64,000 bases of DNA from Escherichia phage vB_EcoM-S1P5QW. The notes beneath the pieces were generated by a model. The model worked only from the letters and a program-made list of their open reading frames with translations. It did not search any database and was not told the origin of the DNA. Both the position numbers and the translations under genes were made by a program. The stretch is from the sequence record OL956808.1. One strand, given 5' to 3'. Shown one piece after another: positions 2,568 to 54,322 of the stretch; the stretch's first letter is position 1; the number at the start of each line of letters is the position of its first letter.

Positions 2568-2833
2568 AATTTATTAATATTTCTATTACTATTGAAAATT
2601 ATGGCATTTTCTATGTTGACCAATACATGAAAATTTCATTTTTCCCAAATAAGACTGGTGTTGGATATTGGGAAAGCCATGTTTCTGAATTAAATGAAAG
2701 TGAATATGCTAGCACACATGAAAAGTTTTTAGACTTTTTATATCATGCTGATTTAACTAGTCATTATATAGATATTCATGAATTTAAAAAGATGATGGAG
2801 AAAGTATTCCAAGCATACTGCTTACTTAGATAA
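2564..2833 (+). CDS. Hypothetical protein (89 aa)
   Basis: ORF with ATGA overlap to upstream gene. Confidence 0.6.
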   Translation: MKFINISITIENYGIFYVDQYMKISFFPNKTGVGYWESHVSELNESEYASTHEKFLDFLYHADLTSHYIDIHEFKKMMEKVFQAYCLLR

Positions 2834-2911
2834 CTGATATCCTCTATGCTTTAAGATAGATCTTCAAATATTATGATATAATAGATCTATGAATTGAGCT
2901 AAGAGGTGAAA

Positions 2912-3469
2912 ATGTCAGAAACTAAGCCTAAATATAATTACGTAAACAATAAAGAGCTTTTACAAGCTATTATTGATTGGAAAACAGAATTAGCAAATAA
3001 TAAAGACCCAAATAAAGTAGTTCGTCAGAATGATACTATCGGATTGGCCATTATGCTTATCGCAGAAGGCTTATCTAAACGTTTCAACTTTTCAGGATAC
3101 ACCCAATCCTGGAAACAAGAAATGATTGCAGATGGTATAGAAGCTTCTATTAAGGGGCTTCATAATTTTGATGAAACGAAATATAAAAACCCACATGCAT
3201 ATATAACTCAAGCTTGTTTTAATGCATTCGTCCAACGTATTAAAAAAGAACGTAAGGAAGTTGCAAAGAAATACAGTTACTTCGTTCACAATGTCTATGA
3301 CAGTCGTGACGACGATATGGTTGCGTTAGTAGATGAAACTTTTATTCAAGACATCTACGATAAAATGACGCATTACGAAGAATCAACCTATAGAACACCG
3401 GGGGCTGAAAAGAAAAGTGTTGTAGACGATTCTCCTAGTTTGGATTTTTTATATGAGGCTAACGATTAA
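2912..3469 (+). CDS. 55: Late-transcription sigma factor gp55
   Basis: [20 protein letters not shown]... matches recalled T4 gp55; 185 aa; RBS AAGAGGTG before ATG at 2912. Confidence 0.95.
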
Positions 3470-3671
3470 CCTCTCCGGATTCTTGGAAGAAATACCTGAA
3501 GTTGAAGCTATTCCCTATTTGCTTAAAATGTATCTCAGGGAAGTTTTAGCTCTTGACATTGATATTGATCCAGAAAATCCGTATGATACCGCTTTTAAAT
3601 CTAATGGTGTAGAATTAAATTACAGGTATCATTTAACAGATGATGATTTTTATTTTATATTAGAGAAATAA
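3453..3671 (+). CDS. Hypothetical protein (72 aa)
   Basis: ORF overlapping 3' end of gene 55; start uncertain. Confidence 0.5.
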
Positions 3672-3672
3672 T

Positions 3673-3990
3673 ATGACTGATAAACCCGAAATTAATGATG
3701 AAGTGGAAAAGCTTATTTCTTCTATTGAAGAAAAGAACCGTCTTGAAGCAGAAAGAAAAGCAAATAAGTTATTGTCTAAAAACAAACGTGAACTGAATCG
3801 TCTTTATAAGCACGCTCAGATCGCAGCTGAAAATAATAATTTTGCTCAATACGAATATGCTATCAAGAAAAGTCGGGATATTCTAAAACAGCCATATAAC
3901 GATGAACTCATCAGTATTCTTTGGAAGACTACTAGATCGCAAATTGAGGATATGATTGATGCTTACACACGTAAAATTCAAGCGTCTTAA
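3673..3990 (+). CDS. Hypothetical protein (105 aa), charged/helical
   Basis: ORF immediately following previous stop. Confidence 0.6.
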   Translation: MTDKPEINDEVEKLISSIEEKNRLEAERKANKLLSKNKRELNRLYKHAQIAAENNNFAQYEYAIKKSRDILKQPYNDELISILWKTTRSQIEDMIDAYTRKIQAS

Positions 3991-4162
3991 AATTAATGCA
4001 GGATTTACTGAATCTTTGAATGGTCATCTTTGTGTGAAAATTTCTGAAAAAGAATACCATGATAGTTCAATTAAAGAAGTTAATCCTCCTATTGTAAGAG
4101 CAGACCCTAATATGAAAGTGTGGGTTGATTCTTATCAAGTCAAAAAATGGTGGCAGTTATGA
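3956..4162 (+). CDS. Hypothetical protein (68 aa)
   Basis: ORF overlapping upstream gene 3' end; start uncertain. Confidence 0.45.
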   Translation: MMLTHVKFKRLKINAGFTESLNGHLCVKISEKEYHDSSIKEVNPPIVRADPNMKVWVDSYQVKKWWQL

Positions 4163-4405
4163 AAGATGAACACCCAGACTTCTGAAATAGATTATAATAA
4201 AATTCGTTCCTCTAAAGAGGAAATGATGAGACTCTTTAAAGAGTCTCATGATAAAGCTAAAGCAGAAGGAACTATAAAATATAAGCGCATAAAATTTAAA
4301 AGTTCTAACGAGCCTCTGTATGGCGTATTATGTGGATAGGAGCTTCGGCTCCTATATTGCTTTATAAATTTTTGGTAAAATAAACCAAAACAAAGAGGAT
4401 ATTAA

Positions 4406-5608
4406 ATGAAAGTATGTATTTTTATGGCTCGAGGTCTTGAAGGTTGTGGTGTAACAAAATTCTCACTCGAGCAACGTGATTGGTTTATTAAAAATAGTCA
4501 TGAAGTGACTTTGGTTTATGCTAAAGATAAATCATTTACTCGTAATTGCGCGCATGATTATAAATCATTTTCAATTCCGGTTTTATTGGCAAAAGAATAT
4601 GATAAAACACTTAAGCTGGTAAATGATTGTGATATTCTAATTATCAATTCAGTTCCTGCTACTTCGGTTGAAGAAGACACGATTAATAACTATAAAAAAA
4701 TTATTGATAACATTAAACCTTCTGTTCGTGTTGTAGTTTATCAACATGACCATTCTTCTCTTTCTTTGCGTCGAAATTTGGGATTAGAAGAAACTGTTCG
4801 TCGAGCTGATGTTATTTTTAGCCATTCTGATAATGGTGATTTTAATAAAGTTCTGATGAAAGAGTGGTATCCAGAAACTGTTTCTCTGTTTGATGATATT
4901 GAAGAAGCACCGACCGTATATAACTTTCAGCCTCCTATGGATATTGCGAAGGTTCGATCAACCTACTGGAAAGATGTTTCTGAAATTAACATGAATATCA
5001 ACCGTTGGATTGGTCGTACGACTACATGGAAAGGTTTTTATCAGATGTTTGATTTTCACGAAAAACATCTTAAACCTGCAGGACTAAGTACTATTATGGA
5101 AGGTCTGGAACGTTCTCCAGCGTTCATTCCTATTAAAGAAAAAGGAATTCCATACGAGTATTATCGTCTTCATCAAGTAGACCAAATTAAAATTGCTCCT
5201 AATTTGCCAACGCAAATTCTTGACCGTTATGTAAATAGCGAAATGCTTGAACGTATGAGTAAATCCGGATTTGGTTATCAGTTGAGTAAGTTGGATAAAA
5301 AATATCTACAGCGCTCTTTAGAATATACTCATCTCGAGCTTGGTGCATGTGGAACAATTCCGGTATTTTGGAAATCTACTGGCGAAAATTTAAAATTCCG
5401 TGTTGATAATACTCCTTTGACCTCGCATGATAGCGGTATCATTTGGTTTGATGAAAATGATATGGAATCAACATTTGAACGTATTAAAGAACTGTCATCT
5501 GACCGAGCTCTTTATGACCGTGAGCGAGAAAAAGCATATGAATTTTTGTATCAGCATCAAGATTCAAGCTTCTGCTTTAAAGAACAGTTTGACATTATTA
5601 CAAAATAA
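4406..5608 (+). CDS. agt: DNA alpha-glucosyltransferase
   Basis: 400 aa; MKVCIFMARGLEGCGVTKFSLEQRDWFIKN... matches recalled T4 alpha-gt nearly throughout. Confidence 0.95.
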   Translation: MKVCIFMARGLEGCGVTKFSLEQRDWFIKNSHEVTLVYAKDKSFTRNCAHDYKSFSIPVLLAKEYDKTLKLVNDCDILIINSVPATSVEEDTINNYKKIIDNIKPSVRVVVYQHDHSSLSLRRNLGLEETVRRADVIFSHSDNGDFNKVLMKEWYPETVSLFDDIEEAPTVYNFQPPMDIAKVRSTYWKDVSEINMNINRWIGRTTTWKGFYQMFDFHEKHLKPAGLSTIMEGLERSPAFIPIKEKGIPYEYYRLHQVDQIKIAPNLPTQILDRYVNSEMLERMSKSGFGYQLSKLDKKYLQRSLEYTHLELGACGTIPVFWKSTGENLKFRVDNTPLTSHDSGIIWFDENDMESTFERIKELSSDRALYDREREKAYEFLYQHQDSSFCFKEQFDIITK

Positions 5609-9183: not shown

Positions 9184-9573
9184 ATGACTAAAATTACTGT
9201 GAATTATACTGTTGATGTAAAAGATATTCAGCCAAAACACGTGCGTTCTGAATCAAATCCACAAAACCAAAATAAAATCCGTCGAGCATGGGTTTTGTCT
9301 CTTTCTGATAACGCAATGGAAGTTATTCAGAACAAAATTAAATCTGCACCTGCTCGTCATGCGTATTATGAAGCTATCGATCGTGAAGTAAGTAATAAAT
9401 GGATTGAACTAATGCGCAAACATACTACAGAATCTCTAAACGCCGGTGCTAAATTTATTATGACTTCATGTGGTGAACGCCTTGAAGATGATTATTGCGG
9501 TAATGCAGATGAACGTCTGATTGTTGCTGCACAAATTGTTGCGGAAACAATTGTGGCCGAGTTTAATAAATGA
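9184..9573 (+). CDS. rpbA: RNA polymerase binding protein RpbA
   Basis: 129 aa; position between 46 and 45 as in T4. Confidence 0.8.
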
Positions 9574-10457
9574 ATTTAGTATATCTTATTAGCTTTCCAG
9601 AGCGGGAAGCTAAAAATATTTTTCCGTGTTATTATATAGGTTCAAAAATTAACGCAATTTTCGATGGAACAAATATAATTGATTCAGCTGGAAAGATTTA
9701 TACTGGAAGCGTGTCATCGAGTTATAGCGATGAATATTTTGAACTTATTAAAACCACTAAATATACCGTCAAAATTTTAGCTGAAACTATATTAGATCCA
9801 AGAAAATTGGAGAGATTTTTTCAATTAAAAGTTAAAGCAAAGAGTAATATAAAATATTTTAATAAAGCATACGCAGATGAAAATACTTTAATTGGTGCTA
9901 AAGGATATGGAACATATAAAAATGTTTTAACTGGAAAAATTGTAAAGCTTTCGCAATCTGAAATTACGCCTGAGTATGTCGGTATTCGTAAAGGTTACAA
10001 ACATAGTTCTGAAGTAAAATACAAAATATCTAATTCAATGAAGAATCACTGGACCGATGAGAAAAAGCTTAAACTCTCAAATAAGATGAAATTGAAATAT
10101 CTTGATTGTAGTTATGCTAAAAAGTTTAGTGATATAATGAATTCAGAAAGTGTAAGATCAAAAATTTCTAAATCTCAAAAAGAATTATGGAATAATGCTG
10201 AAAGAAGACAGAGAGCTTCAATTCAAGCAACTGTTAGAAATAATTTACCGGAATTCAAATCAAAATTTAGAAAATCTAAAGCTAGAGGAACTTGGATTGA
10301 ACATGAAGATGAATTAAAATCTTTATGGCATGCTTACGGAAAACCAAGTTATAATAAATTTCGTAAAATTGCAGTAGCTAATGGGTTTAACGACGAATCT
10401 TATCAGGGTGCTGTACGGTCCTGGTCTAACTATTATGTAAATAGGAAATTGAAATGA
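9570..10457 (+). CDS. Free-standing GIY-YIG homing endonuclease (Seg-like)
   Basis: N-terminal VYLISF...YYIGS GIY-YIG motifs; C-terminal repeated NUMOD3-like units ([33 protein letters not shown]); ATGA overlaps with rpbA and 45. Confidence 0.8.
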
Positions 10458-12717: not shown

Positions 12718-13086
12718 ATGATTGAAATTACTCTTAAAAAACCTGAAGATTTTCTGAAAGTAAAAGAAACTTTGACTCGTATGGGAATTGCTAATAATAA
12801 AGATAAAGTTCTGTATCAGTCCTGTCATATTCTTCAGAAAAAAGGACTATACTATATCGTTCATTTTAAAGAAATGCTTCGTATGGATGGCCGGCAAGTT
12901 GAAATGACAGAAGAAGATGAAGTTCGTCGTGATTCGATTGCATGGCTGTTAGAAGATTGGGGACTGATTGAAATCGTTCCTGGACAAAGAACTTTTATGA
13001 AAGATTTAACTAATAACTTCCGAGTTATTTCTTTTAAACAAAAACATGAATGGAAACTCGTTCCTAAATATACGATTGGTAATTAA
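12718..13086 (+). CDS. regA: Translational repressor RegA
   Basis: 122 aa; synteny 62-regA-43. Confidence 0.93.
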   Translation: MIEITLKKPEDFLKVKETLTRMGIANNKDKVLYQSCHILQKKGLYYIVHFKEMLRMDGRQVEMTEEDEVRRDSIAWLLEDWGLIEIVPGQRTFMKDLTNNFRVISFKQKHEWKLVPKYTIGN

Positions 13087-13096
13087 GGTAAATTAT

Positions 13097-13333
13097 ATGA
13101 CACAATCAGAGATTCAGTTTACCGAAGCTTTTCTAATATTCGAAAATCTAAAACAAACATATGGTCTGTCTTCTACTCAACTGGTTTTTGACCTCCCGGA
13201 AGATAAACAAATAGAATTCCAAAAAGAATTCCAACGATTAGTTTACCCACGCCAACGCGCATTTCATGCGATTATCAAAACCACAAATAAAGATGGCAAG
13301 TCCGTTATATCGCGTCGTACAATAGAAATTTAA
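13097..13333 (+). CDS. Hypothetical protein (78 aa; internal start of track ORF 13046..13333)
   Basis: ORF between regA and 43, followed by UUCG hairpin at 13340..13358. Confidence 0.45.
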   Translation: MTQSEIQFTEAFLIFENLKQTYGLSSTQLVFDLPEDKQIEFQKEFQRLVYPRQRAFHAIIKTTNKDGKSVISRRTIEI

Positions 13334-16284: not shown

Positions 16285-16536
16285 ATGAAAAATATTCAAA
16301 CTAATTTTATTCAAAATTTAAAAGTTGTTAACGCAGAAAAAGCTAATAAACTCTTTAAAGTTAAAGAATTTGAAAATGAAGGTAACACTTACGGTATTAT
16401 AGAACAAAATGGAATGGTTACTGGATTAGAAATTTATAATGGTAAAGGAAAATTTCAGTCACAGCCAATTTCTGTTATGGGTGTAAGAAAAGGAATTAAA
16501 ACTGAAGATGCTTTAAAGTTATTTGTTAAGTTTTAA
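16285..16536 (+). CDS. Hypothetical protein (83 aa)
   Basis: ORF with RBS GGAGGAAC downstream of early promoter. Confidence 0.6.
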   Translation: MKNIQTNFIQNLKVVNAEKANKLFKVKEFENEGNTYGIIEQNGMVTGLEIYNGKGKFQSQPISVMGVRKGIKTEDALKLFVKF

Positions 16537-16548: not shown

Positions 16549-16929
16549 ATGAAAATCGCTATTTTGGTTATTGCATTAGGTCTTACTGGTTGTGTGGCTC
16601 AAGGACCGGTAGTAAATCAGTCTGATGTAGGAAAAATTGTAAACTGTTCAAGCAAGTTTTATAATCCTAATGTCAAGTGTTATAAAGAAGCTCCAAAGCA
16701 AACAGTAGAACAAATGCAGGCGAATTTTGACGAAGCTATTCGTCCAGATGAATCTGCTCAAGCATATCGTAATTCGGATGTAATTACACGCGAAGAAAAA
16801 ATTGAAAACTACTGCGCCGAGCTTTGGGCTAATTGGGCTAATAATTACCAATGGCGTACCGGTAAAAATGCTCCGATGGAGTATGTAGTGAATTCTTATA
16901 ATTCATGCGTAAAAAATTTGACTAAGTGA
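16549..16929 (+). CDS. Predicted lipoprotein (126 aa)
   Basis: Signal peptide MKIAILVIALGLTGC with lipobox LTG-C; four further Cys; adjacent to imm. Confidence 0.6.
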   Translation: MKIAILVIALGLTGCVAQGPVVNQSDVGKIVNCSSKFYNPNVKCYKEAPKQTVEQMQANFDEAIRPDESAQAYRNSDVITREEKIENYCAELWANWANNYQWRTGKNAPMEYVVNSYNSCVKNLTK

Positions 16930-16936
16930 GGAAAAC

Positions 16937-17188
16937 ATGGAAACTTTAGTAGCAGGTTCAATTTTTATGGTTTTAGTTTCAGGCGTGTTGGCTATTATTA
17001 TATACATGCTTCCATGGTTTATCGCCTTGATGCGTGGGTCAAAATCGACAGTAGGAATCTTTTTCACGTCTTTACTGTTTAACTGGTCAATTATTGGTTG
17101 GTTTATTACATTTATTTGGTCAATTGCGGGTGAAACTAAAAAGTCTGCACAGCCAAATCAGGTAATTATCATCAGAGAGAAGGAATGA
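16937..17188 (+). CDS. imm: Superinfection immunity membrane protein Imm (probable)
   Basis: 83 aa, two TM segments, position between 43 and 42 as in T4. Confidence 0.65.
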   Translation: METLVAGSIFMVLVSGVLAIIIYMLPWFIALMRGSKSTVGIFFTSLLFNWSIIGWFITFIWSIAGETKKSAQPNQVIIIREKE

Positions 17189-17334
17189 AAAGCAAAATTA
17201 TAGCAGTGTTGCTTTTAATCTTGATGATTATAATAAGTATATACTATAGTGTAACGGTTCCTCTTATGATTCCAACTATTATTTTAGGTTGGAGCTTATT
17301 ACTGTTACAAGTTAAATATGAATGTATCAATTGA
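17185..17334 (+). CDS. Small membrane protein (49 aa), not in ORF track
   Basis: ATGA overlap with imm; hydrophobic sequence MKSKIIAVLLLILMIIISIYY... Confidence 0.45.
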   Translation: MKSKIIAVLLLILMIIISIYYSVTVPLMIPTIILGWSLLLLQVKYECIN

Positions 17335-17341
17335 GGTTTAA

Positions 17342-18082
17342 ATGATTAGTGACTCTATGACAGTTGAAGAAATCCGTCTTCATTTGGGGCTTGCATTAAA
17401 GGAAAAAGATTTCGTAGTTGATAAAACTGGTGTTAAAACTGTTGAAATTATTGGCGCATCATTTGTAGCAGATGAACCCTTTATTTTTGGCGCTCTTAAT
17501 GATGAATACATTCAGCGTGAACTTGAATGGTACAAGTCTCAAAGTCTGTTTGTTAAAGATATTCCAGGTGAAACACCAAAGATTTGGCAGCAGGTAGCAT
17601 CTTCTAAAGGCGAAATTAACTCGAATTATGGTTGGGCTATTTGGTCAGAAGATAACTATGCCCAGTATGATATGTGTTTAGCTGAACTTGGTCAAAATCC
17701 TGATTCTCGACGTGGTATCATGATTTATACTCGTCCATCTATGCAGTTTGACTATAATAAAGATGGTATGTCAGATTTCATGTGCACGAATACAGTACAG
17801 TACCTGATTCGTGACAAGAAAGTCAATGCAGTAGTAAGCATGCGCTCAAATGACGTGGTCTTCGGATTCCGTAATGATTATGCATGGCAAAAATACGTAT
17901 TAGATAAATTAGTATCTGATTTGAATGCAGGCGATTCAACTCGTCAGTATAAAGCAGGTTCTATTATATGGAATGTTGGAAGTCTTCATGTATATTCTCG
18001 TCATTTTTACTTGGTTGATCATTGGTGGAATACTGGCGAAACTCATATTGTGAAAAAAGACTATAAAGGTGAGTGGAAATGA
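17342..18082 (+). CDS. 42: dCMP hydroxymethylase gp42
   Basis: 246 aa; matches recalled T4 gp42 throughout. Confidence 0.95.
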   Translation: MISDSMTVEEIRLHLGLALKEKDFVVDKTGVKTVEIIGASFVADEPFIFGALNDEYIQRELEWYKSQSLFVKDIPGETPKIWQQVASSKGEINSNYGWAIWSEDNYAQYDMCLAELGQNPDSRRGIMIYTRPSMQFDYNKDGMSDFMCTNTVQYLIRDKKVNAVVSMRSNDVVFGFRNDYAWQKYVLDKLVSDLNAGDSTRQYKAGSIIWNVGSLHVYSRHFYLVDHWWNTGETHIVKKDYKGEWK

Positions 18083-18921
18083 TTCAATTCGTAATTCCAA
18101 GTTATCAACGTGTCGGGGCAGTTTCTGCCCTTGATATGTTTCCGACTGATTATGAACCGCATATTGTAGTGCGTGAACACGAAGAAAAAGCTTATTATGA
18201 TGCTTATGGGTCTAGAGCTAAAATTATAACTATTCCTGATGATGTAAACGGAATTGCCGGTACTCGTAAAGCAATTACTGATATGTATGCAGGTCAACGA
18301 ATTTGGATGATTGACGATGATACTACTATTCGTATGAGTTCAATGCGAAAAAGAGATGACCGTCGTTGTGTGGATAAAGTCAATCAATTGACTCATGAAC
18401 AGTTCTATGAATTGATTCAATATGTTGAGGATGCCATGGATTGTGGGTATTATCATGGCCATGCTCGTCTACCTATTTTTAAAATTACTTCATCTTGGGG
18501 CAATTATCGTGAAAATTCATATGGATTCACGAATACATGGTATGACCTCGGAAAACTTACTACAGAACAAATTGGGTATGGAAAAATTGATTTATGCGAA
18601 GATATGTATGCATTTCTCAATTTAATTAGTCAAGGTTATCCGCATTTGGCCTTGTTCAAATATCTGGTTGTATCTGGAAAAGCACAAGCTCCTGGCGGGT
18701 GTAGTTCAATTCGTAGTAATTCTAAACATAATAGAGCGCTTGAGCAAATCAATAGAGAGTTTCCAGAGCAAGCTCGTTGGAAAACTTCTAATATTGAAAA
18801 ACGAAAATCGTTGGGTGAAGAAGACGAGCCATTAAAGGTTCTTCGCATGTGTGTTTCACGTAAAGAAAAATCAGAAGCATTTCATAAGTTTAATGCTATT
18901 CATCCAATAGCAGTTGATTAA
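18073..18921 (+). CDS. Glycosyltransferase with DxD motif occupying the T4 beta-gt locus; candidate beta-1,6-glucosyl-alpha-glucose transferase (T2/T6 type)
   Basis: 282 aa, WMIDDDTT DxD motif; lies between 42 and uvsX where T4 carries the unrelated 351-aa beta-gt. Confidence 0.55.
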   Translation: MEMIQFVIPSYQRVGAVSALDMFPTDYEPHIVVREHEEKAYYDAYGSRAKIITIPDDVNGIAGTRKAITDMYAGQRIWMIDDDTTIRMSSMRKRDDRRCVDKVNQLTHEQFYELIQYVEDAMDCGYYHGHARLPIFKITSSWGNYRENSYGFTNTWYDLGKLTTEQIGYGKIDLCEDMYAFLNLISQGYPHLALFKYLVVSGKAQAPGGCSSIRSNSKHNRALEQINREFPEQARWKTSNIEKRKSLGEEDEPLKVLRMCVSRKEKSEAFHKFNAIHPIAVD

Positions 18922-18945
18922 TGCCTAAATTTATTGTGTTATAAT
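18922..18945 (+). promoter_or_regulatory. Possible MotA-dependent middle promoter upstream of uvsX (MotA-like box TGCCTAA, -10 TATAAT)
   Basis: TGCNT-type box about 11 bp upstream of TATAAT. Confidence 0.35.
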
Positions 18946-18998
18946 TACTCTATCTTTAACCAGTGAGGAAAATATAATGATGCCTATGGAAAAAATGA

Positions 18999-20180
18999 AT
19001 GTCTATTGCAGATTTAAAATCCCGTTTGATTAAAGCTTCCACTTCTAAAATGACTGCTGAACTGACTACATCTAAATTCTTTAATGAAAAGGATGTAATC
19101 CGTACAAAAATCCCAATGCTTAATATTGCTATTTCTGGTGCGATTGATGGCGGCATGCAGTCTGGTTTAACTATTTTCGCAGGGCCTTCTAAACACTTTA
19201 AATCAAATATGTCTTTGACTATGGTTGCGGCATATTTGAACAAATATCCTGACGCGGTTTGTCTATTCTATGATAGCGAATTTGGTATTACTCCAGCTTA
19301 TTTACGATCCATGGGAGTTGACCCGGAACGAGTAATTCATACGCCAATTCAGTCAGTTGAACAGCTGAAAATTGATATGGTGAACCAGCTTGAAGCTATT
19401 GAGCGTGGTGAAAAGGTTATTGTATTCATCGACTCAATCGGTAATATGGCTTCTAAGAAAGAAACGGAAGATGCCTTGAATGAAAAATCTGTGGCAGATA
19501 TGACTCGTGCTAAATCACTGAAGTCATTATTCCGTATTGTTACTCCTTATTTTAGCATTAAAAATATTCCATGTGTTGCGGTTAACCATACAATTGAAAC
19601 AATTGAAATGTTTAGTAAAACCGTGATGACAGGTGGTACAGGCGTAATGTATTCGGCTGATACTGTATTCATTATCGGTAAACGCCAGATTAAAGATGGT
19701 TCTGATCTTCAGGGGTATCAATTTGTTCTAAATGTAGAAAAATCTCGTACCGTTAAAGAAAAAAGTAAATTCTTTATTGATGTTAAATTTGACGGTGGTA
19801 TCGATCCTTATTCTGGATTGTTAGATATGGCTCTAGAATTAGGATTTGTTGTAAAACCTAAGAATGGTTGGTATGCTCGTGAATTTCTTGACGAAGAAAC
19901 TGGCGAGATGATTCGCGAAGAAAAATCTTGGCGTGCAAAAGATACCAACTGCACTACATTCTGGGGTCCTTTATTTAAGCATCAACCATTCCGAGATGCT
20001 ATTAAACGTGCTTATCAGTTAGGTGCTATTGATAGTAATGAAATTGTTGAAGCTGAAGTTGATGAATTGATTAACTCAAAGGTTGAAAAATTTAAATCTC
20101 CAGAAAGTAAAAGTAAATCAGCAGCTGATTTAGAAACTGACCTCGAGCAGTTAAGTGATATGGAAGAATTTAATGAATAA
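18999..20180 (+). CDS. uvsX: RecA-like recombinase UvsX
   Basis: 393 aa; MSIADLKSRLIKAS...; Walker A GPSKHFKS; matches recalled T4 UvsX. Confidence 0.95.
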   Translation: MSIADLKSRLIKASTSKMTAELTTSKFFNEKDVIRTKIPMLNIAISGAIDGGMQSGLTIFAGPSKHFKSNMSLTMVAAYLNKYPDAVCLFYDSEFGITPAYLRSMGVDPERVIHTPIQSVEQLKIDMVNQLEAIERGEKVIVFIDSIGNMASKKETEDALNEKSVADMTRAKSLKSLFRIVTPYFSIKNIPCVAVNHTIETIEMFSKTVMTGGTGVMYSADTVFIIGKRQIKDGSDLQGYQFVLNVEKSRTVKEKSKFFIDVKFDGGIDPYSGLLDMALELGFVVKPKNGWYAREFLDEETGEMIREEKSWRAKDTNCTTFWGPLFKHQPFRDAIKRAYQLGAIDSNEIVEAEVDELINSKVEKFKSPESKSKSAADLETDLEQLSDMEEFNE

Positions 20181-24825: not shown

Positions 24826-24837
24826 ATGTCCTCCTTA

Positions 24838-24862
24838 TTGCTTTATATATTTATTGTATAAT
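24838..24862 (+). promoter_or_regulatory. Candidate MotA-dependent middle promoter for gene 56 (MotA box TTGCTTTA, 11-bp spacer, -10 TATAAT)
   Basis: TGCTT box at about -30 relative to TATAAT. Confidence 0.45.
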
Positions 24863-24896: not shown

Positions 24897-25415
24897 ATGG
24901 CTTACTTTAATGAATGTGCTCATTTGATCGAAGGTGTTGATAAAGCAAATCGTGCATATGCTGAGAATATTATGCACAATATTGACCCACTGCAGGTTAT
25001 GCTTGACATGCAGCGGCATTTACAGATTCGTTTGGCTAATGATAAACCAGAAACAAATCGTCATCCTGATTCACTTGAAACTGCAGGAGAAGTTCTTGCT
25101 TGGTTGCGAAACCAAGACGATTATATCGCAGATGAAACTCGCGAGCTATATACTTCTCTTGGTGGTATGAGTAATGGTGAAAAAGAAGCTTCTGCTGTAT
25201 GGAAACCTTGGAAGAAACGTTATTCTGAAATGCAATCCAAGAAAATTCAAGATTTATCTCCTGAAGATCAGCTTGAAATTAAATTTGAACTGATTGACCA
25301 ATTTCACTTTTTCATGAATAAATTTATTGCTCTTGGAATGTCAGCTGAAGAAATCTTTAAACTTTATTACCTGAAAAATGCTGAAAACTTCGCTCGTCAA
25401 GACCGAGGTTATTAA
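24897..25415 (+). CDS. 56: dCTPase/dUTPase gp56
   Basis: 172 aa from MAYFNECAHLIEGVDKA...; matches recalled T4 gp56. Confidence 0.9.
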   Translation: MAYFNECAHLIEGVDKANRAYAENIMHNIDPLQVMLDMQRHLQIRLANDKPETNRHPDSLETAGEVLAWLRNQDDYIADETRELYTSLGGMSNGEKEASAVWKPWKKRYSEMQSKKIQDLSPEDQLEIKFELIDQFHFFMNKFIALGMSAEEIFKLYYLKNAENFARQDRGY

Positions 25416-25615
25416 TGGCTCGTTTAAATAAGCGTCAGCTCAAGAAAGCCCATAAGAAACGTATTGACCAGCTATTTAAAGATTATAACAAGGAGCTCGT
25501 ATGTGAGCTCTTAACTAATCAACTTCGTATGGTTGATTGGGTTATAGAAGAAGGTCCTGACGAAATTTTTGTCAGCGAAGAAGCCTTAAAATTAATTATA
25601 GAGCATTCAAAATGA
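25415..25615 (+). CDS. Hypothetical protein (66 aa)
   Basis: ORF coupled to gene 56 stop. Confidence 0.55.
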   Translation: MARLNKRQLKKAHKKRIDQLFKDYNKELVCELLTNQLRMVDWVIEEGPDEIFVSEEALKLIIEHSK

Positions 25616-25821
25616 AATTTGATTTCTACGCGTGGCAAAAAGCCGGGAGACCGGCTACTCGAGCATTTGGTTCTGATGGATATAATATTAGAGCCCATTG
25701 GAAATTTAATGCTCCAGAAGATTATTCTCCGGTAATTATTAACGGCGATGTTGTTATATTAACTAAAATCGGGTATTTTAACGTTCCGCGAGAATTTATT
25801 ATAAATAATCATGTAATTTAA
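25612..25821 (+). CDS. Hypothetical protein (69 aa)
   Basis: ATGA-coupled ORF. Confidence 0.55.
   Translation: MKFDFYAWQKAGRPATRAFGSDGYNIRAHWKFNAPEDYSPVIINGDVVILTKIGYFNVPREFIINNHVI
25800..25807 (+). promoter_or_regulatory. Late promoter TATAAATA upstream of soc
   Basis: Exact TATAAATA 30 nt upstream of soc ATG. Confidence 0.55.
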
Positions 25822-36467: not shown

Positions 36468-36644
36468 ATGCCAATGTATGATTATAAATGCCAATCCGAA
36501 GATTGCGGGCATGAATATGAAAAAATTAAAAAGATTTCTGAACGAGAAAATGATGTTTGCCCTAAATGCCATCGTTTGTCTACTCGTCGGCCTTCTGCTC
36601 CTAAGCATGTGAATGGTGGTTTTTACGATTTACTTAAAGGGTGA
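36468..36644 (+). CDS. Zinc-ribbon protein (58 aa), FmdB-like CxnC...CPxC, not in ORF track
   Basis: MPMYDYKCQSEDCGHEYE...CPKCH; ATG 2 nt after upstream stop. Confidence 0.5.
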   Translation: MPMYDYKCQSEDCGHEYEKIKKISERENDVCPKCHRLSTRRPSAPKHVNGGFYDLLKG

Positions 36645-37018
36645 TTATGTTTAAAATCGGTAAGAAATATCGTATTCGCGAAGGCGAAGAAAAGAAATAT
36701 CTAATGTCTGCTATTTATAGGAATGGTTCTATTAATGCTGTAATATCTACAAGCGAATTTATCGTTGAAGATATGAAAGGTCATAATGTTACAATGATTA
36801 GTACAGCATCTGGAAATGATGGAAAAATTCTTCATAGTTGTCAGAGTAATGTTCTAATTTATGATGAAGAATTTGACTTCTTCAAAGAAGTTTCCGAAGA
36901 TTTTGATTTTGAATGTACTATTACTATGAAATCTGGTGACCCTCTTTCTTTTACAGTTAAAGATGAAAGAAGCCGTTTAAGAATTATTAGTCTCCTTCAA
37001 GCTATTAAATTTAAGTGA
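36641..37018 (+). CDS. Hypothetical protein (125 aa)
   Basis: ORF (GTG 36641 or ATG 36647). Confidence 0.6.
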   Translation: MIMFKIGKKYRIREGEEKKYLMSAIYRNGSINAVISTSEFIVEDMKGHNVTMISTASGNDGKILHSCQSNVLIYDEEFDFFKEVSEDFDFECTITMKSGDPLSFTVKDERSRLRIISLLQAIKFK

Positions 37019-37284
37019 AAATTATGAAATATATTAATCGTTCTATTGCAGCATTAGTATTAGCAGTATCTTTAGTAGGATGCACTGATGCTGATAATGC
37101 AACTAAAATTTTATCATCAAGTGGTTTTACGAATATTGAAATCACTGGATATAATTGGTTTGGTTGTTCTGAAAATGATTTCCAACATACTGGATTTCGT
37201 GCTATTGGACCTACTGGGCAGAAAGTAGAAGGAACAGTATGTTCTGGGCTGTTCTTTAAGGATTCAACTATTCGTTTTAAATAA
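37015..37284 (+). CDS. Predicted lipoprotein (89 aa)
   Basis: Signal peptide with lipobox LVG-C (MKYINRSIAALVLAVSLVGC). Confidence 0.55.
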   Translation: MKIMKYINRSIAALVLAVSLVGCTDADNATKILSSSGFTNIEITGYNWFGCSENDFQHTGFRAIGPTGQKVEGTVCSGLFFKDSTIRFK

Positions 37285-37285
37285 A

Positions 37286-37305
37286 AGGCCTTCGGGCCTT
37301 TAGCT
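37286..37305 (+). terminator. AGGCC-UUCG-GGCCU hairpin
   Basis: Tetraloop hairpin after lipoprotein ORF. Confidence 0.45.
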
Positions 37306-37353
37306 TTATGATTGCCGGAGTATAATATTCCCGAAACCAAACGAGGATAAGTG

Positions 37354-39171
37354 ATGATTAAGAATGAAATTAAAATTCTGAGCGATATTGAACATATCAA
37401 AAAGCGTAGCGGCATGTACATTGGCTCTTCAGCTAATGAAATGCATGAGCGCTTTCTGTTTGGTAAATGGGAAAGTGTTCAGTATGTACCTGGTCTTGTT
37501 AAGCTTATTGATGAAATTATCGATAACTCAGTAGATGAAGGTATTCGTACTAAGTTTAAATTCGCAAATAAAATTAATGTTACTATTAAAAATAATCAAG
37601 TAACAGTTGAAGATAACGGTCGTGGTATTCCACAGGCGATGGTTAAAACACCTACCGGTGAAGAAATTCCTGGTCCTGTTGCTGCGTGGACTATTCCAAA
37701 AGCAGGTGGTAACTTCGGTGATGATAAAGAACGCGTCACCGGCGGTATGAATGGTGTTGGTTCTAGTTTGACAAACATTTTTTCTGTGATGTTTGTTGGT
37801 GAAACTGGCGATGGTCAAAATAATATTGTAGTTCGTTGTTCAAACGGCATGGAAAATAAATCATGGGAAGATATTCCTGGAAAATGGAAAGGAACCCGTG
37901 TTACTTTCATTCCTGATTTTATGTCATTTGAAACTAATGAGCTGTCCCAAGTTTATCTTGACATTACATTAGATCGTCTCCAGACACTTGCTGTTGTTTA
38001 TCCTGATATTCAATTTACCTTTAATGGTAAAAAGGTTCAGGGTAATTTTAAGAAATATGCACGCCAATATGATGAGCATGCTATTGTTCAAGAACAAGAA
38101 AATTGTTCTATTGCGGTTGGTCGTTCACCGGATGGTTTTCGTCAATTAACATACGTCAATAACATTCATACTAAGAATGGTGGCCATCACATTGACTGTG
38201 TTATGGATGATATTTGTGAAGACCTTATTCCACAAATCAAACGTAAGTTCAAAATTGATGTAACTAAAGCACGTGTCAAAGAATGTTTGACTATCGTTAT
38301 GTTTGTTCGTGATATGAAAAACATGCGATTTGATTCTCAAACTAAAGAGCGTTTGACTTCTCCATTTGGCGAAATTCGTAGTCATATTCAGCTTGATGCT
38401 AAAAAGATTTCACGCGCTATTCTAAATAATGAAGCAATTCTAATGCCAATTATTGAAGCAGCATTAGCTCGTAAATTGGCAGCAGAAAAAGCAGCAGAAA
38501 CTAAAGCAGCTAAAAAGGCTTCTAAAGCTAAGGTTCATAAACATATCAAAGCGAATCTTTGCGGTAAAGATGCTGACACTACATTGTTCTTGACTGAGGG
38601 TGATTCAGCTATCGGATATCTTATTGATGTTCGCGATAAAGAACTTCATGGTGGTTATCCATTGCGCGGTAAAGTTCTTAATAGCTGGGGTATGTCATAT
38701 GCCGATATGCTTAAAAACAAAGAACTATTTGATATTTGCGCAATCACTGGTCTAGTTCTTGGTGAAAAAGCTGAAAACTTGAATTATCGCAATATTGCTA
38801 TTATGACTGATGCTGACCATGATGGTCTAGGAAGCATTTATCCTTCTCTGCTCGGATTTTTTAGTAATTGGCCAGAATTGTTTGAGCAAGGACGAATTCG
38901 CTTTGTCAAAACTCCTGTAATCATCGCTCAGGTCGGTAAAAAACAAGAATGGTTTTATACAGTCGCTGAATATGAGAGTGCCAAAGATGCTCTACCTAAA
39001 CATAGCATCCGTTATATTAAGGGACTTGGCTCTTTGGAAAAATCTGAATATCGTGAGATGATTCAAAATCCAGTATATGATGTTGTTAAACTTCCTGAGA
39101 ATTGGAAAGAGCTTTTTGAAATGCTCATGGGAGATAATGCTGACCTTCGTAAAGAATGGATGAGCCAGTAG
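37354..39171 (+). CDS. 39: DNA topoisomerase II large (ATPase) subunit, uninterrupted gp39 (equivalent to T4 gp39 plus gp60 fused)
   Basis: 605 aa; GHKL ATPase motifs; C-terminal 130 aa match recalled T4 gp60 (..IMTDADHDGLGSIYPSLLGFF..RKEWMSQ) with no coding gap. Confidence 0.93.
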   Translation: MIKNEIKILSDIEHIKKRSGMYIGSSANEMHERFLFGKWESVQYVPGLVKLIDEIIDNSVDEGIRTKFKFANKINVTIKNNQVTVEDNGRGIPQAMVKTPTGEEIPGPVAAWTIPKAGGNFGDDKERVTGGMNGVGSSLTNIFSVMFVGETGDGQNNIVVRCSNGMENKSWEDIPGKWKGTRVTFIPDFMSFETNELSQVYLDITLDRLQTLAVVYPDIQFTFNGKKVQGNFKKYARQYDEHAIVQEQENCSIAVGRSPDGFRQLTYVNNIHTKNGGHHIDCVMDDICEDLIPQIKRKFKIDVTKARVKECLTIVMFVRDMKNMRFDSQTKERLTSPFGEIRSHIQLDAKKISRAILNNEAILMPIIEAALARKLAAEKAAETKAAKKASKAKVHKHIKANLCGKDADTTLFLTEGDSAIGYLIDVRDKELHGGYPLRGKVLNSWGMSYADMLKNKELFDICAITGLVLGEKAENLNYRNIAIMTDADHDGLGSIYPSLLGFFSNWPELFEQGRIRFVKTPVIIAQVGKKQEWFYTVAEYESAKDALPKHSIRYIKGLGSLEKSEYREMIQNPVYDVVKLPENWKELFEMLMGDNADLRKEWMSQ

Positions 39172-39200
39172 TTTACTTTACCACAAGGATGTGGTATAAT
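39171..39200 (+). promoter_or_regulatory. Early promoter (-35 GTTTAC, -10 TATAAT) upstream of rIIA.1/rIIA
   Basis: GTTTACTTTACCACAAGGATGTGGTATAAT. Confidence 0.5.
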
Positions 39201-39225
39201 TAATTGGGCAAATGAGGATATTGAA

Positions 39226-39429
39226 ATGAAATCATATAGAGTAAATTTAGAACTTTTTGATAAAGCAGTTCATCGAGAATATAGAATCATTCAACGCTTT
39301 TTCGATATGGGAGAAGCCGAAGAATTTAAAAACCGCTTTAAAGATATTAGAGATAAAATTCAATCCGACACCGCAACTAAAGACGAACTACTAGAAGTTG
39401 CTGAAGTTATTAAGCGTAATATGAATTAA
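39226..39429 (+). CDS. Hypothetical protein (67 aa), T4 rIIA.1 position
   Basis: ORF immediately upstream of rIIA. Confidence 0.6.
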
Positions 39430-39439
39430 TGAGGAAATT

Positions 39440-42857: not shown

Positions 42858-43415
42858 ATGCAGAAAACGAATCCGGGTTTACAGAGACTATTTCAGATTC
42901 CGACATTTACCCTATCGAACAGTGACTTGACTAGTGAAATGAAGGTCAAAATTGCTGATACAGCAAGATACTCTTTAAAACAAAACCCGAACCAGGATAA
43001 AGCAGAAGTTATCGAAAGATGCCGTATCGCTGTGTACGCAGAGTTTTTTGTGGCAGATTGGCTAAGCGGATATGTCAATAAAGGCCAAGAAAATGTCGAT
43101 GATCCGTACACGTATGCATGGGATGTTTTAGCGCATCCAAAATATTGCGGGCTTCGTGTAGAAGTCAAAACACATCAAACTGACTCGCGTTGGATTTCGG
43201 TAACAACGGGATGCAGCGGAGAGTATCCATATGGTTCTGGAATAAATTTAGGGCCCATTCTAAATCATCAAGTCGCTGACTGTATAATTATATTCAACAC
43301 TAAAGAAATTCATCCAGGTGTCATCCAGTACACTCCGAAGTTCATCGGTGACAGAGAAGACCTTCGTAAGGTTGTAAGAAAAAGCAACTACAACGGATGG
43401 TATCTTTCCATTTAA
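42858..43415 (+). CDS. denB: Endonuclease IV DenB
   Basis: 185 aa; position downstream of rIIB; matches recalled T4 DenB. Confidence 0.88.
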   Translation: MQKTNPGLQRLFQIPTFTLSNSDLTSEMKVKIADTARYSLKQNPNQDKAEVIERCRIAVYAEFFVADWLSGYVNKGQENVDDPYTYAWDVLAHPKYCGLRVEVKTHQTDSRWISVTTGCSGEYPYGSGINLGPILNHQVADCIIIFNTKEIHPGVIQYTPKFIGDREDLRKVVRKSNYNGWYLSI

Positions 43416-43431
43416 AAATTTTCACAAAACG

Positions 43432-43461
43432 GTTTACATACCACAAGGACCGTGGTACTAT
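43432..43461 (+). promoter_or_regulatory. Early promoter (-35 GTTTACA, -10 TACTAT)
   Basis: TTTCACAAAACGGTTTACA...CGTGGTACTATACAACTATCAACTG module. Confidence 0.5.
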
Positions 43462-43495
43462 ACAACTATCAACTGATACTGATTTGGAGAGTAAA

Positions 43496-43759
43496 ATGAA
43501 ATTTAAATTTTATTATGCTAAGCATAAAATAACTGATGAGTTTGTGTCAGTTGAATATTCTAGCGATGATGAAGGCATGATTTATACTCGCTTAGGATTA
43601 TCGCATTGGGAGTCTGATCAGCCTTATTTTTCAACTCCTGAAGAAATTACACGCTTAGTTAATGGTCATATGAATGACCACTGGAATGTAATTCTTTCAG
43701 ATAGTCTTAAAGAGGCTATTAATAGTAATGAAATGAAAATCGCTGAGATTGAGCTATGA
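43496..43759 (+). CDS. Hypothetical protein (87 aa)
   Basis: ATG with RBS GGAGAG, downstream of early promoter. Confidence 0.55.
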   Translation: MKFKFYYAKHKITDEFVSVEYSSDDEGMIYTRLGLSHWESDQPYFSTPEEITRLVNGHMNDHWNVILSDSLKEAINSNEMKIAEIEL

Positions 43760-43944: not shown

Positions 43945-43974
43945 GTTTACAAGACTGTTCTTCCGTGGTACTAT
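43945..43974 (+). promoter_or_regulatory. Early promoter (-35 GTTTACA, -10 TACTAT); near-identical copy of module at 16210..16262
   Basis: GTTTACAAGACTGTTCTTCCGTGGTACTAT...CAACTACGGAGGAACAGAAAATG. Confidence 0.55.
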
Positions 43975-45554: not shown

Positions 45555-46883
45555 ATGCAACTGAATAATCGCGATTTAAAAAGTATCATTGATAATGAAG
45601 CATTGGCTTATGCTATGTACACGGTTGAAAATCGTGCTATTCCAAATATGATTGATGGATTTAAGCCAGTTCAACGATTTGTTATTGCTCGAGCTCTTGA
45701 TTTGGCACGAGGAAATAAAGATAAGTTTCACAAACTCGCTTCTATTGCAGGTGGTGTAGCGGACCTTGGATATCACCATGGTGAAAACTCTGCACAAGAT
45801 GCAGGTGCTTTGATGGCTAATACTTGGAATAATAACTTTCCTCTGTTAGATGGTCAAGGAAACTTTGGTTCTCGTACTGTCCAAAAGGCAGCGGCAAGTC
45901 GTTATATTTTTGCTCGTGTAAGTAAAAATTTCTATAACGTATATAAAGATACTGAATATGCTCCGGTACATCAAGATAAAGAACACATTCCGCCTGCTTT
46001 CTATTTGCCTATTATTCCTACTGTTCTTCTTAATGGTGTTTCCGGTATTGCAACTGGTTATGCAACTTACATTCTTCCTCATAGTGTTTCTTCTGTTAAG
46101 AAAGCTGTACTGCAAGCTCTTCAAGGAAAGAAAGTAACTAAACCGAAGGTAGAATTCCCAGAATTTCGTGGTGAAGTCGTTGAAATTGACGGTCAATATG
46201 AAATTCGTGGAACATATAAGTTTACTTCACGAACTCAAATGCATATCACTGAGATTCCGTATAAGTATGATCGTGAAACTTATGTGAGTAAAATCTTAGA
46301 CCCGCTTGAAGATAAAGGCTTCATTACATGGGATGATGCTTGTGGTGAGCATGGTTTTGGCTTTAAAATTAAATTCCGCAAAGAATACTCTTTGAGCGAT
46401 AACGAAGAAGAACGCCATGCAAAAATCATGAAAGACTTCGGGTTGATTGAGCGTCGTTCCCAGAATATTACCGTTATTAATGAGAAAGGAAAACTACAAG
46501 TTTACGATAACGTAGTTGATTTAATTAAAGACTTCGTTGAAGTTCGTAAAACTTATGTCCAAAAGCGAATTGATAACAAAATCAAAGAAACTGAATCAGC
46601 ATTTCGTTTAGCCTTTGCCAAGGCACATTTCATTAAGAAAGTGATTTCAGGTGAAATTGTTGTACAAGGTAAAACTCGCAAAGAACTGACTGAAGAACTT
46701 TCTAAAATTGATATGTATTCTTCTTATGTTGATAAACTAGTTGGAATGAACATTTTTCATATGACTTCCGACGAAGCAAAGAAACTTGCTGAAGAAGCTA
46801 AAGCTAAAAAAGAAGAAAACGAATATTGGAAAACTACTGATGTAGTTACAGAATACACTAAAGATTTAGAGGAAATCAAATGA
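45555..46883 (+). CDS. 52: DNA topoisomerase II medium subunit gp52
   Basis: 442 aa; matches recalled T4 gp52. Confidence 0.95.
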   Translation: MQLNNRDLKSIIDNEALAYAMYTVENRAIPNMIDGFKPVQRFVIARALDLARGNKDKFHKLASIAGGVADLGYHHGENSAQDAGALMANTWNNNFPLLDGQGNFGSRTVQKAAASRYIFARVSKNFYNVYKDTEYAPVHQDKEHIPPAFYLPIIPTVLLNGVSGIATGYATYILPHSVSSVKKAVLQALQGKKVTKPKVEFPEFRGEVVEIDGQYEIRGTYKFTSRTQMHITEIPYKYDRETYVSKILDPLEDKGFITWDDACGEHGFGFKIKFRKEYSLSDNEEERHAKIMKDFGLIERRSQNITVINEKGKLQVYDNVVDLIKDFVEVRKTYVQKRIDNKIKETESAFRLAFAKAHFIKKVISGEIVVQGKTRKELTEELSKIDMYSSYVDKLVGMNIFHMTSDEAKKLAEEAKAKKEENEYWKTTDVVTEYTKDLEEIK

Positions 46884-51139: not shown

Positions 51140-54100
51140 TTATGCTAAACGAACAATATAGTTAAAAGCAATGTTTTTAACCGTGTTTTCTGTATTACCT
51201 GTACTATTTACAGTGATAGTATGACCATGCGAGCCAATTGCTACCGTGTGGGTATGAGCACCGATACCTACAGTATGGGTATGAGCACCAATACCAACAG
51301 TATGCGCGTGAGCGCCTGCGCTTGCAGCAGTACCAGATATAGAGTGCGAATGTGCCCCAGAAGAAGAAGTTCCAAGCGTATTACCACCACCGGCGGATCC
51401 TCTTATAGAACCAGTACCAGGAGAGTTGTTACTTCCCGCATAAAGAGCGCTTGTGTGGCTGTGCGCACCGGCGGTGTTTGTGGAACCGCTCAAACTATGC
51501 GTATGAGCACCAGTATTATTACTGGTCTTAGTACCATAATCAAAGCTTGAAGTCGTTTTGCTACCGTAATCAAAACTAGAAGTGGTCTTAGTACCCAAAT
51601 CTGTGCTTGATGCACTTGCACTATGGCTATGTGACTTAACACCGTCTGCTTCTGTACTTAATACAGCGCGCCCAGATGGTTTACCCTTGATAGTTTGACC
51701 ACGCATATCAGGCAGAGCGCCAGAAGGATACACCGCAGCTAACTTAGGATACAAGCCAGTATCAAATGTTTGGCCTTCCATTATGGCATAACCTTCAGGA
51801 GGTGTATCAGTAGGCCAAGGAATCGGAGCACCAATTGGATAACTCGATACAATATCGGTTTTAAGTGATTCAATTGTACTATTTAAGTTGGCAAAATTAC
51901 CAGAACCACCAGTAATGTTACCGTCTGTACCTAAATAAACTGAACCCCCAGCAGAAATGCGCTTAGGAGATATAAAATCACCAGAACGTGTAAATTCCCA
52001 GCCTAAATCTTTTATAACTGCGCCTGTTGAACTTCCGTCTCCACCTTCATGATAATGAACTCTAAAGTTACCACCATTAATTAAAGTGCCTAACGAATAA
52101 CAGCTGTTACCTTGAACATAACGTTGTTTTAAAATAGGAACGTAAGTACTTGTATCTGTGCGATTAATATTCATATAGAACGGAGCACGAACGTTTTCAT
52201 TATTTTGTGAAGCAAAAGACCCTGCACCAGCCGGACGTACTGTATCAGTGCATTCAGCATCAATATAAGCTGCTTGTCCTAATTGCATACGGTAATTAGG
52301 AGAAATGCGGCTATGACTAGTAACAACAACAAGTTTACTGTCATTGTCCACAGTAATCATATTACCGCCAGCGCCATCATCGCCTAACGTAACAGAATGG
52401 CGCATTTTTACCATACCATTATTAAGACTAATACTTAGCGGGCGGAGATTACTTATTCCACCACTTTCACCGGCATCTTTAGGAGTCGGGATAATATGTA
52501 ATGCTGTTTCTGAGCGACGGAAAATAGCACCGTATTCGGCATTCCAAATTCTTAATGCATCTGCCGTTCCACCGAATTTAGCCTGACCATTTACAGATAA
52601 TCCATTATTTGCAACTAAACTTGATTCAGTAACAATAGAACCAGATGATGTAATACCACCAGAAGTTAATAAACCACCATTAACTCGAAATTGAATAGGT
52701 CCGACGGTAGAACCTGATCCGGGAGCAACTCGTTGAGAATAAAAATGGTAACCTTGTCCATCTGATACTTCAAAAACTGTTTCACGAGCACGATCGCCAG
52801 ATGCATTAAAGGCATTACCCCATGCTTTGATAGATAGATAACTTTTATTCTGACCTGGGCGAGTACCGCCGGCCCACAATATAGTTTTAGTGCCATCTGT
52901 TGCTGTAGGAGCGTCAAGTTGAATACCGTCGGGTCTAGCACCAGTAAGAACTAATCCGTTATCAAATTTAATTCTTTGTATTGAAGATACTGTTCCGTCG
53001 GCATAAAACTGTACGTTATTAGAGCCAGTTACCAATTTCAAAATACCCGGATTAACTTCCATACCTTCCTGAGTATTAATATTAGTTTTGCCTTTACCAC
53101 GGAAATAGTGGTTCATTTTTCCGCCTGAGTTATAGCCAATATGCGTCTGGCCGTCTCCAGCAGTGTTTTCATCAGCCTGTGTTTGAACTGATAAAAAGGC
53201 AGCGTTCGTTCCAGGCATTGTCCAGGTTCCGCCTTGGTCTTCTGAACGTCCAAATAACGCTTTACGAGTACTACGGAAACTATCAGGAGTAATAGAAGCA
53301 ACAGAATTCCAATTACCTACTAAATCATAAACACCCTGCTTAATGTATTTTAAACCAGTGGCAGCATCGCCCAAAGCAATATATCTTTCTCCCATTGGAG
53401 TAGGAGAACCATAGTTGTTAGTATTTTCGTCAGTGGTAATTGTGCCAATAGCAAGTGAACGACGTAATACCATTGCGCCATCATTACGAAGACCCATTAA
53501 TTTAGTAGTAAGTGTATTTCCGGTCCACCAAGAAATTTCATCATTTTTACCGGTTTGAGCTGAAGCGATTTCATGGTAAATGGTTCCGCCTGATTTAGCT
53601 CGAACTTTACGAAGATAGTTTATACCATTTTCTTCACCTGTTCCAGGATAAACATATTGAACTAATGATTGCGAATCGTATTGTCCAAATGCTTTTGTAT
53701 CTAAAATAATATTTTTAGTATTAATCTGAGGCGAAGTAATATTTCCGAGAGCTGCAATATTTCCAGATGTAGTTATACTACCTCCTGATACTGCTAAACC
53801 TCCACCGTCAACAACAAATCCGCCGTCACGTCGAAACGTCCAATATTTCGAATCGCCAGATTCATTGATATAATGAATCTTCAACGAACCTTCAGAAACT
53901 AAAGTACCTAATGAAAAAGTTCCATCTTTAAAGCGCTGTTTAATTATAGGATTATATTCAGATGTGGAAGTAGCTGAGCTTAAATCTACAAAAATTGGAG
54001 CTTTTGCAGTGTGTTGACCAGACCAAGCCCCACTTCCAGTAGTACGATAATTAAACTCAATATATCCACCGCTTGCTACAATTTGCGGACCAATTAAATT

Positions 54101-54322
54101 AAATTTTCCAGTCTGTGTATAATCGCCAGTTTGAGTGATATTTCCACTAATATTACCGCCAGCGGTAATGCTTAAATCAATAATATTTCCCGAGTCATCT
54201 TTAGTAAAAAGAGTACGGTCTTTTAAGTTTATAGCCAATTCACCTTCGGCTAATACTGAAGCAGCAGGACGTTGACCTGCGGTTTTGCTTCTTTTAAATT
54301 GTATTTGTTTTAAAGTAGCCAT
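51140..54322 (-). CDS. 37: Long tail fibre distal subunit gp37
   Basis: 1060 aa; C-terminal His-box repeats ([15 protein letters not shown] x2) and ...[11 protein letters not shown] end; synteny 34-35-36-37-38. Confidence 0.9.

Follow-up and report, generated by a model that had tools for sequence, protein, structure and literature searches.

In the 64,000 nucleotides (nt) of Escherichia phage vB_EcoM-S1P5QW analysed here (OL956808.1, hereafter the window), gene 39, which encodes the large subunit of the phage type II topoisomerase, is one uninterrupted open reading frame (ORF) of 605 amino acids (aa) on the + strand, running from an ATG at 37354 to the end of a TAG stop at 39171. The ORF listing opens this frame one codon upstream, at a GTG (37351); the ATG has a GAGGA Shine-Dalgarno sequence 6 nt before it and agrees with the N-terminus of T4 gp39 (MIKNEIK). 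The frame is continuous through ...NIAIMTDADHDGLGSIYPSLLGFF... (also given as ...YRNIAIMTDADHDGLGSIYPSLLGFF...) until the final ...RKEWMSQ, just as a preliminary description of this stretch had claimed, and the chance of a 605-codon open frame is ~2e-21 per start at the 35% GC composition of the window (stop probability 0.076 per codon). The gene and the features around it are collected in Table 1.

Table 1. Features of the gene 39 locus and of the partner subunit gene, in window coordinates
Feature	Coordinates	Strand	Basis
39.1 homologue, 89 aa, directly upstream of gene 39	37015..37284	+	PHROG 902, E = 2e-37; position as GiZh gp39.1
Gene 39 unsplit ('39+60'), topoisomerase II large subunit, GyrB/ParE-like, ATPase + transducer + TOPRIM	37354..39171	+	ORF, Pfam, PDB alignment
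TOPRIM acidic (Glu) motif LTEGDSA, aa 413-419	38590..38610	+	Motif position; T4 counterpart in gp39
64-nt parental segment, ORF nt 1419-1482, codons 474-494, ENLNYRNIAIMTDADHDGLGS	38772..38835	+	blastn break points, junction sequences
TOPRIM metal-binding DxD motif DADHDG, aa 486-491	38809..38826	+	Motif position; T4 counterpart in gp60
Gly491 (GGT) + Leu492 (CTA), adjacent codons; the T4 50-nt coding gap falls between their equivalents	38824..38829	+	Sequence
rIIA.1 homologue, 67 aa, next gene downstream of gene 39	39226..39429	+	Pfam T4_RIIA1 full length, E = 2e-33
rIIA, 725 aa	39440..41617	+	ORF; collinear with T4 rIIA 12..2189
Gene 52, 442 aa, GyrA-like partner subunit	45555..46883	+	ORF; collinear block window 43727-51283 = T4 167025-159479 (96.5%), T4 gene 52 at 163876-165204

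The product has a GHKL ATPase domain (Pfam HATPase_c at aa 47-149; E = 2e-9, 38.3 bits where the cutoff is 26.4) with the motifs EDNGRGIP (aa 86-93) and GGMNGVG (aa 130-136), a transducer domain (Pfam DNA_gyraseB, aa 250-384, E = 1.5e-13) with the QTK loop FDSQTK at aa 326-331, and a match to Pfam TOPRIM_C (aa 519-604). The TOPRIM is complete, with LTEGDSA and DADHDG together in the single ORF. The protein aligns over its full length with PDB 8ylu_C (residues 1-605 of both, E = 0), a chain that we consider to be T6 gp39 from a published cryogenic electron microscopy (cryo-EM) study. Its alignment to PDB 8yo3_C, in which T4 gp39 and gp60 are artificially fused, falls into two stretches. Further PDB matches are human Topo II alpha and beta (~1e-59), yeast Topo II (6e-56), ParE (2.5e-47) and GyrB (4e-35). 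A GHKL ATPase, a QTK-loop transducer and a TOPRIM with E...DxD are also combined on one chain in bacterial GyrB and ParE and in eukaryotic topoisomerase II (N-terminal half). Their sequence likeness to the phage protein is distant, and the phage enzyme is a relaxing topoisomerase with gp52 as its partner instead of GyrA or ParC. The enzyme of T2 and T6 has two subunits (gp39 and gp52) and that of T4 three, and T6 Topo II is active in relaxation assays (cryo-EM, Nat Commun 2024, PMC11461880). We infer from the 3 aa differences to the assayed and solved T6 gp39 that gp39 and gp52 would relax DNA in an ATP-dependent manner, and gp39 would work with the gp52 encoded in the same window as a two-subunit type IIA topoisomerase, as in T2 and T6.

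In T4 this subunit comes in two pieces. The record NC_000866 gives, all on the minus strand, the order rIIA, rIIA.1, gene 60 (joined), 60.1, a mobA pseudogene and gene 39, and annotates gene 60 with a 50-nt 'non-coding translational bypass region' at 2803..2852; mobA is intact, with 261 aa, in re-sequenced T4 (MT984581). The preliminary description had the T4 gene split into genes 39 and 60 by a mobA insert with a 50-nt bypass, as the T4 annotation says, but was wrong in placing the ribosomal hop after DHDGLG. The hop follows Gly46 of DHDG and translation resumes at Leu (GAT GGA / TAG...TTGGA / TTA GGT).

A blastn comparison of the window with T4 yielded two collinear blocks: window 37200-38771 corresponds to T4 5482-3911 (96.6% identity) and window 38836-39500 to T4 2793-2129 (99.2%). 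Therefore 64 nt in the window (38772..38835) stand for 1117 nt in T4 (3910..2794). The T4 stretch contains a C-terminal tail of gp39 (43 aa), mobA/60.1, an N-terminal tail of gp60 (30 aa), a diverged 16-aa copy of the replaced sequence, the 50-nt bypass (take-off GGA, UAG and hairpin, landing GGA) and 9 further nt. At the left junction the window reads ...GGTGAAAAAGC/TGAAAAC..., whereas T4 reads ...GGTGAAAAAGC/GTTTGAAGAA..., the start of the 43-aa tail. At the right junction the window has ...GATGGT CTAGGAAGC/ATTTATCC..., against ...GATGGA(TAGCC...50 nt...TTGGA)TTAGGTTCT/ATTTATCC... in T4. The window protein is thus T4 gp39 residues 1-473 (through GEKA), then ENLNYRNIAIMTDADHDG (17-18 parental residues), then LGSIYPS... 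to the end of gp60. Outside the element, the coding sequences of T4 and the window share 96.6% identity on the upstream side and 99.2% on the downstream side, and they encode the same enzyme.

These break points can be compared with the published mapping of the MobA element. According to Manning & Atkins 2022 (bioRxiv 10.1101/2022.08.31.505936), the element measures 1097-1106 nt. Its 5' end falls within nt 1399-1419 (aa 466-473) of the unsplit gene and its 3' end at D490/G491, to which the T4 clade (clade 1) adds 9 nt; its insertion removes 55-75 nt (64 nt in the HY01 example). The same preprint has it contributing MobA, the bypass cassette, a C-terminal tail (~44 aa), an N-terminal tail and a homologous replacement region (homR) whose identity to the parental sequence is 67-81%, and dividing the TOPRIM metal site. 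The values in the window all fit this mapping: a break at ORF nt 1418/1419, Gly491 plus 9 nt at the other end, 64 nt replaced and a homR identity of 68% (over 57 nt; 73% over the 48 nt before the gap).

No part of the cassette was found anywhere in the window. The 64 kb were searched by tblastn with the T4 insert (in 3 frames), gp60.1, the fragment of mobA, the tail of gp39 and the N-terminus of gp60, and the sole significant match was homR to 38767..38841 (E = 1.4e-5), as expected from its being a copy of this segment. The intact 261-aa MobA of MT984581 has no tblastn match in the 64 kb at E <= 1, and neither tail of the split gene (C-terminal of the first ORF, N-terminal of the second) has a significant match in the window, where gene 39 is a single ORF. 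The take-off hairpin GGATAGCCTTCGGGCTATC gives 0 pattern matches in the window with <=3 mismatches. A 50-nt coding gap with paired GGA codons and a stop is likewise lacking at the hop position, where the glycine codon is GGT, unlike the take-off GGA of T4, and is contiguous with CTA. RNA folding around this position gives z = -1.4, which is not separable from shuffled sequences, with a weak 5-bp GACCA/UGGUC stem only, whereas the T4 hairpin region folds at z = -2.05 and shows the known GGAUAGCCUUCGGGCUAUC stem-loop. The junctions, the tblastn searches and the hairpin search thus bear out the proposal of the preliminary description that split, bypass and mobA are all lacking here. With no cassette at the locus, translation of gene 39 is conventional, without a hop.

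The arrangement is that of many relatives. In T2 (AP018813) and T6 (AP018814) the coding sequence lies at 2447..4264 in each record, and its 1818 nt equal the length of the window ORF, in line with the T2/T6-like arrangement that had been suggested. The window gene has 96.8% nt identity to T2 gene 39 (2 aa differences; 52 synonymous and 2 nonsynonymous codon differences) and 96.6% to that of T6 (3 aa differences; 55 synonymous, 3 nonsynonymous), an excess of synonymous change which indicates that gene 39 is under purifying selection. Identity to gene 39 of phage GiZh is 98.9% with 0 aa differences, the protein (ANZ51448) being identical. T2, T6, RB32, RB51, RB14 and GiZh all share the 1818 nt and 605 aa, the domain order and the neighbours 39.1, rIIA.1 and rIIA, and differ from the window by ~1-3% in nt, mostly at synonymous sites; the annotations of RB32 and RB51 name the unsplit gene '60plus39'.

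The whole gene has matches in 662 records of the phage collection, GiZh, Aplg8 and SHBML-50-1 being the closest relatives. To count the two arrangements we used a junction probe of 164 nt centred on the 64-nt segment, scored when coverage was at least 80%. The uninterrupted junction occurs in 452 records, with an identity of >=99% in 44 of these, and the T4 insert in 43 records, among them T4 isolates, RB55, RB59, HY01 and vB_EcoM_112; in cassette-bearing phages such as Salmonella phage Manna the probe matches the 3' flank only. The unsplit gene is thus found in about nine in ten close relatives.

These counts also bear on the quality of the sequence. If the gene were really split or gapped, its continuous frame could have arisen by mis-assembly, for example through the collapse of a mixed population into one consensus, and the window is indeed a single sequence; we see no specific support for such an error. 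Because the identical 605-aa protein was obtained from the independently sequenced GiZh, and because the 452 records share the uninterrupted junction, we regard an artefact of assembly or annotation as extremely unlikely, and the window is moreover collinear with T4 on both sides of the junction.

A different possibility is that the cassette was once present and has been lost. In such a 'hit and run' history an ancestor would have carried MobA and the bypass, and recombination with a naive relative, or a precise deletion, would have restored the gene, so that the unsplit form would be a revertant. T-even phages recombine freely, the window is mosaic relative to T4, and Manning & Atkins report progressive loss of the element in some clades (10.1101/2022.08.31.505936). 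The first 400 nt 3' of the junction are also nearly identical to T4 (0 and 2 mismatches per 200 nt). However, the low divergence beside the junction is equal for T2 and T6, and so reflects local conservation and not a conversion tract derived from T4. We had considered a T4 co-conversion tract at the junction as a candidate in its own right and rejected it, as there was no signal and the mismatch density is low for T4, T2 and T6 alike. The losses documented in the preprint keep the tails or the split gene, traces that were searched for in the window and not found, and the 64-nt segment is of the parental type, with 62/64 nt identical to T2 and 62/64 to T6, but only 68% identity to the copy in the T4 insert. 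The closest relatives of the gene also suggest a placement among unsplit phages. Replacement by a naive allele leaves no scar and is for that reason indistinguishable from a locus that never received the insertion; weighing these points, we consider a secondary loss highly improbable.

We read 37354..39171 as a normal unsplit Tequatrovirus gene 39, encoding one 605-aa GyrB-like subunit and naive to MobA, with a probability of roughly 96%; the ORF and its domains, the exact break points, the lack of every part of the cassette and the counts of the two arrangements carry this reading. The locus would never have taken up the MobA homing-endonuclease element, or keeps no trace of it. In T4 and a minority of relatives the element has swapped 64 nt of gene 39 for ~1.1 kb, and in T4 it parts the TOPRIM motifs onto gp39 and gp60. 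That the unsplit arrangement is the ancestral one, as had been proposed, is in agreement with the preprint, which regards the unsplit gene as the parental state (10.1101/2022.08.31.505936).

Edgell et al. 2010 (PMC2988022) count mobA among the free-standing HNH endonucleases, with gene 39 as its target. The intact enzyme nicks T2 gene 39 inside the replaced region and, when infections are mixed, passes on the split together with the 50-nt insert; the donor is shielded from self-nicking by the bypass insert (Bonocora et al. 2011, PNAS 108:16351, as cited in 10.1101/2022.08.31.505936). The window carries the uninterrupted parental 64-nt segment, of the T2 type reported to be nicked. This segment (38772..38835) would accordingly be a naive MobA homing site, its susceptibility being predicted from the 62/64 nt identity to T2.

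No observation contradicts the reading of the locus as an unsplit, MobA-naive gene 39, with one caveat. Codon 479, in which both T2 differences of the segment fall, is CGC (Arg) here, and Arg also in GiZh, as against CAT (His) in T2 and CAC (His) in T6; both the activity of the enzyme and the cleavage of this allele by MobA are deduced from sequence. The Arg479 allele lies ~17-19 nt upstream of the inferred nick position and is common to GiZh and other relatives. It could conceivably alter recognition by MobA and give a natural resistance that keeps the lineage free of the cassette with no need of a bypass insert, or the lineage could have lost the cassette without a scar through recombination, but we treat either idea as a long shot.

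The unsplit gene 39 of this phage is real, ordinary and already known, since the polymorphism between split and unsplit forms, its origin from a mobile element and the structure of the unsplit enzyme have all been published. It raises no new question and will not surprise a specialist, and its use is mainly for typing and annotation: the locus tells the phage apart from T4 at once, the gene should be annotated as one conventional coding sequence ('39+60') without recoding, and the genome is marked as a potential recipient of MobA homing in mixed infections with T4-type phages.

A separate observation concerns the T4 reference. At codons 326-328 of gene 39 (window 38329..38337) NC_000866 reads MRLIRQTK, where the window, T2, T6 and MT984581 all read MRFDSQTK, the conserved context of the transducer QTK loop. 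The deviation amounts to a compensating -1/+1 indel pair, which has the look of a mistake in the old reference record or of a trait peculiar to it.

Promoters and terminators were also scanned inside gene 39 and on its antisense strand; the 6 promoter-like sites compare with 9.5 expected and there were no terminators, so nothing goes beyond chance. Antisense ORFs within the gene (<=96 aa) were dismissed as mechanical only. Downstream, the full-length T4_RIIA1 match agrees with the earlier proposal of an rIIA.1-like ORF as the next gene. Right after the gene 39 stop and before rIIA.1, the stretch 39172..39200 (+) holds a sigma-70-like promoter (TTTACT-17-TATAAT, extended TG). Upstream, a GGCC-UUCG-GGCC hairpin (37286..37299, by eye) stands directly 3' of the 39.1 stop, followed by a MotA-box-like TAGCTTTA (37302..37309) 11 nt before a TATAAT at 37321..37326, also noted by eye; these two elements are consistent with a candidate middle promoter of gene 39.

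The 39.1 homologue of the window has a lipoprotein-like signal peptide (MKIMKYINRSIAALVLAVSLVGC); 39.1 is annotated with 65 aa in NC_000866, but with 261 nt in re-sequenced T4 MT984581. Between 39.2 and 39.1 the window has an extra ORF of 123-125 aa (36641..37018, +) with no T4 counterpart. Its match is to PHROG 622 (unknown function), and its N-terminus shows a weak similarity to goF. T2 and T6 carry ORFs of 105 aa and 123 aa, respectively, in this place, and the corresponding stretch of GiZh is unannotated.

The window as a whole is collinear with T4 in reverse orientation, covering T4 from ~146.9 kb across the origin up to ~42.7 kb. Identity is 92-98% in most blocks and indels are numerous; the closest record over 24 kb is phage GiZh (96.9%). 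The phage is a non-T4 Tequatrovirus with a MobA-naive gene 39, and the claim of the preliminary description that it is not reference T4 is upheld by the indels, the block identities, the T4 genes that it lacks and GiZh as closest record. The further statement that most other proteins are near-identical to T4 holds roughly but is overstated for gene 56, the motB region and genes 37/38, which are only 74-86% identical to T4.

T4 mobB, segA, segF and b-gt have no tblastn match in the window (loci 4390..4415, 18064..19011 and 25378..25800), nor does T4 Dam match anywhere in it, T4 dam (16846..17625) being without a counterpart. The place of b-gt and segA is taken by a 280-aa ORF (18079..18921) that matches PHROG 842, a beta-glucosyl-HMC-alpha-glucosyltransferase (E = 1e-88), and Pfam TAGT, which implies DNA glucosylation of the T2/T6 type. 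Two small ORFs, 25415..25615 and 25612..25821 (DUF7422), occupy the position of segF. The region downstream of gene 61 joins the upstream region of gene 56 almost directly at 24836..24857, and gene 56 itself (24897..25415) is ~74% identical to T4. Between rpbA (9184..9573) and gene 45 lies a 295-aa ORF (9570..10457, +) with no T4 counterpart (T4 junction 32665/32613), which matches PHROG 655 'homing endonuclease' (E = 4e-33) and whose N-terminus is GIY-YIG-like in appearance, so that a phage without several T4 homing-endonuclease genes carries one that T4 lacks. The distal tail-fibre region (51283..54173), made up of gene 38 and the 3' part of gene 37, shows an identity to T4 of only 74-77% or does not align, as expected for host-range cassettes. 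Four further small ORFs are inserted relative to T4, all on the + strand: 2564..2833 (DUF7200) between 55.1 and 55, 13046..13333 (RB18 ORF43.1-like) between regA and 43, 16285..16536 (PHROG 18567) between 43 and imm.1, and 43397..43759 (PHROG 2390) between denB and ndd.6.

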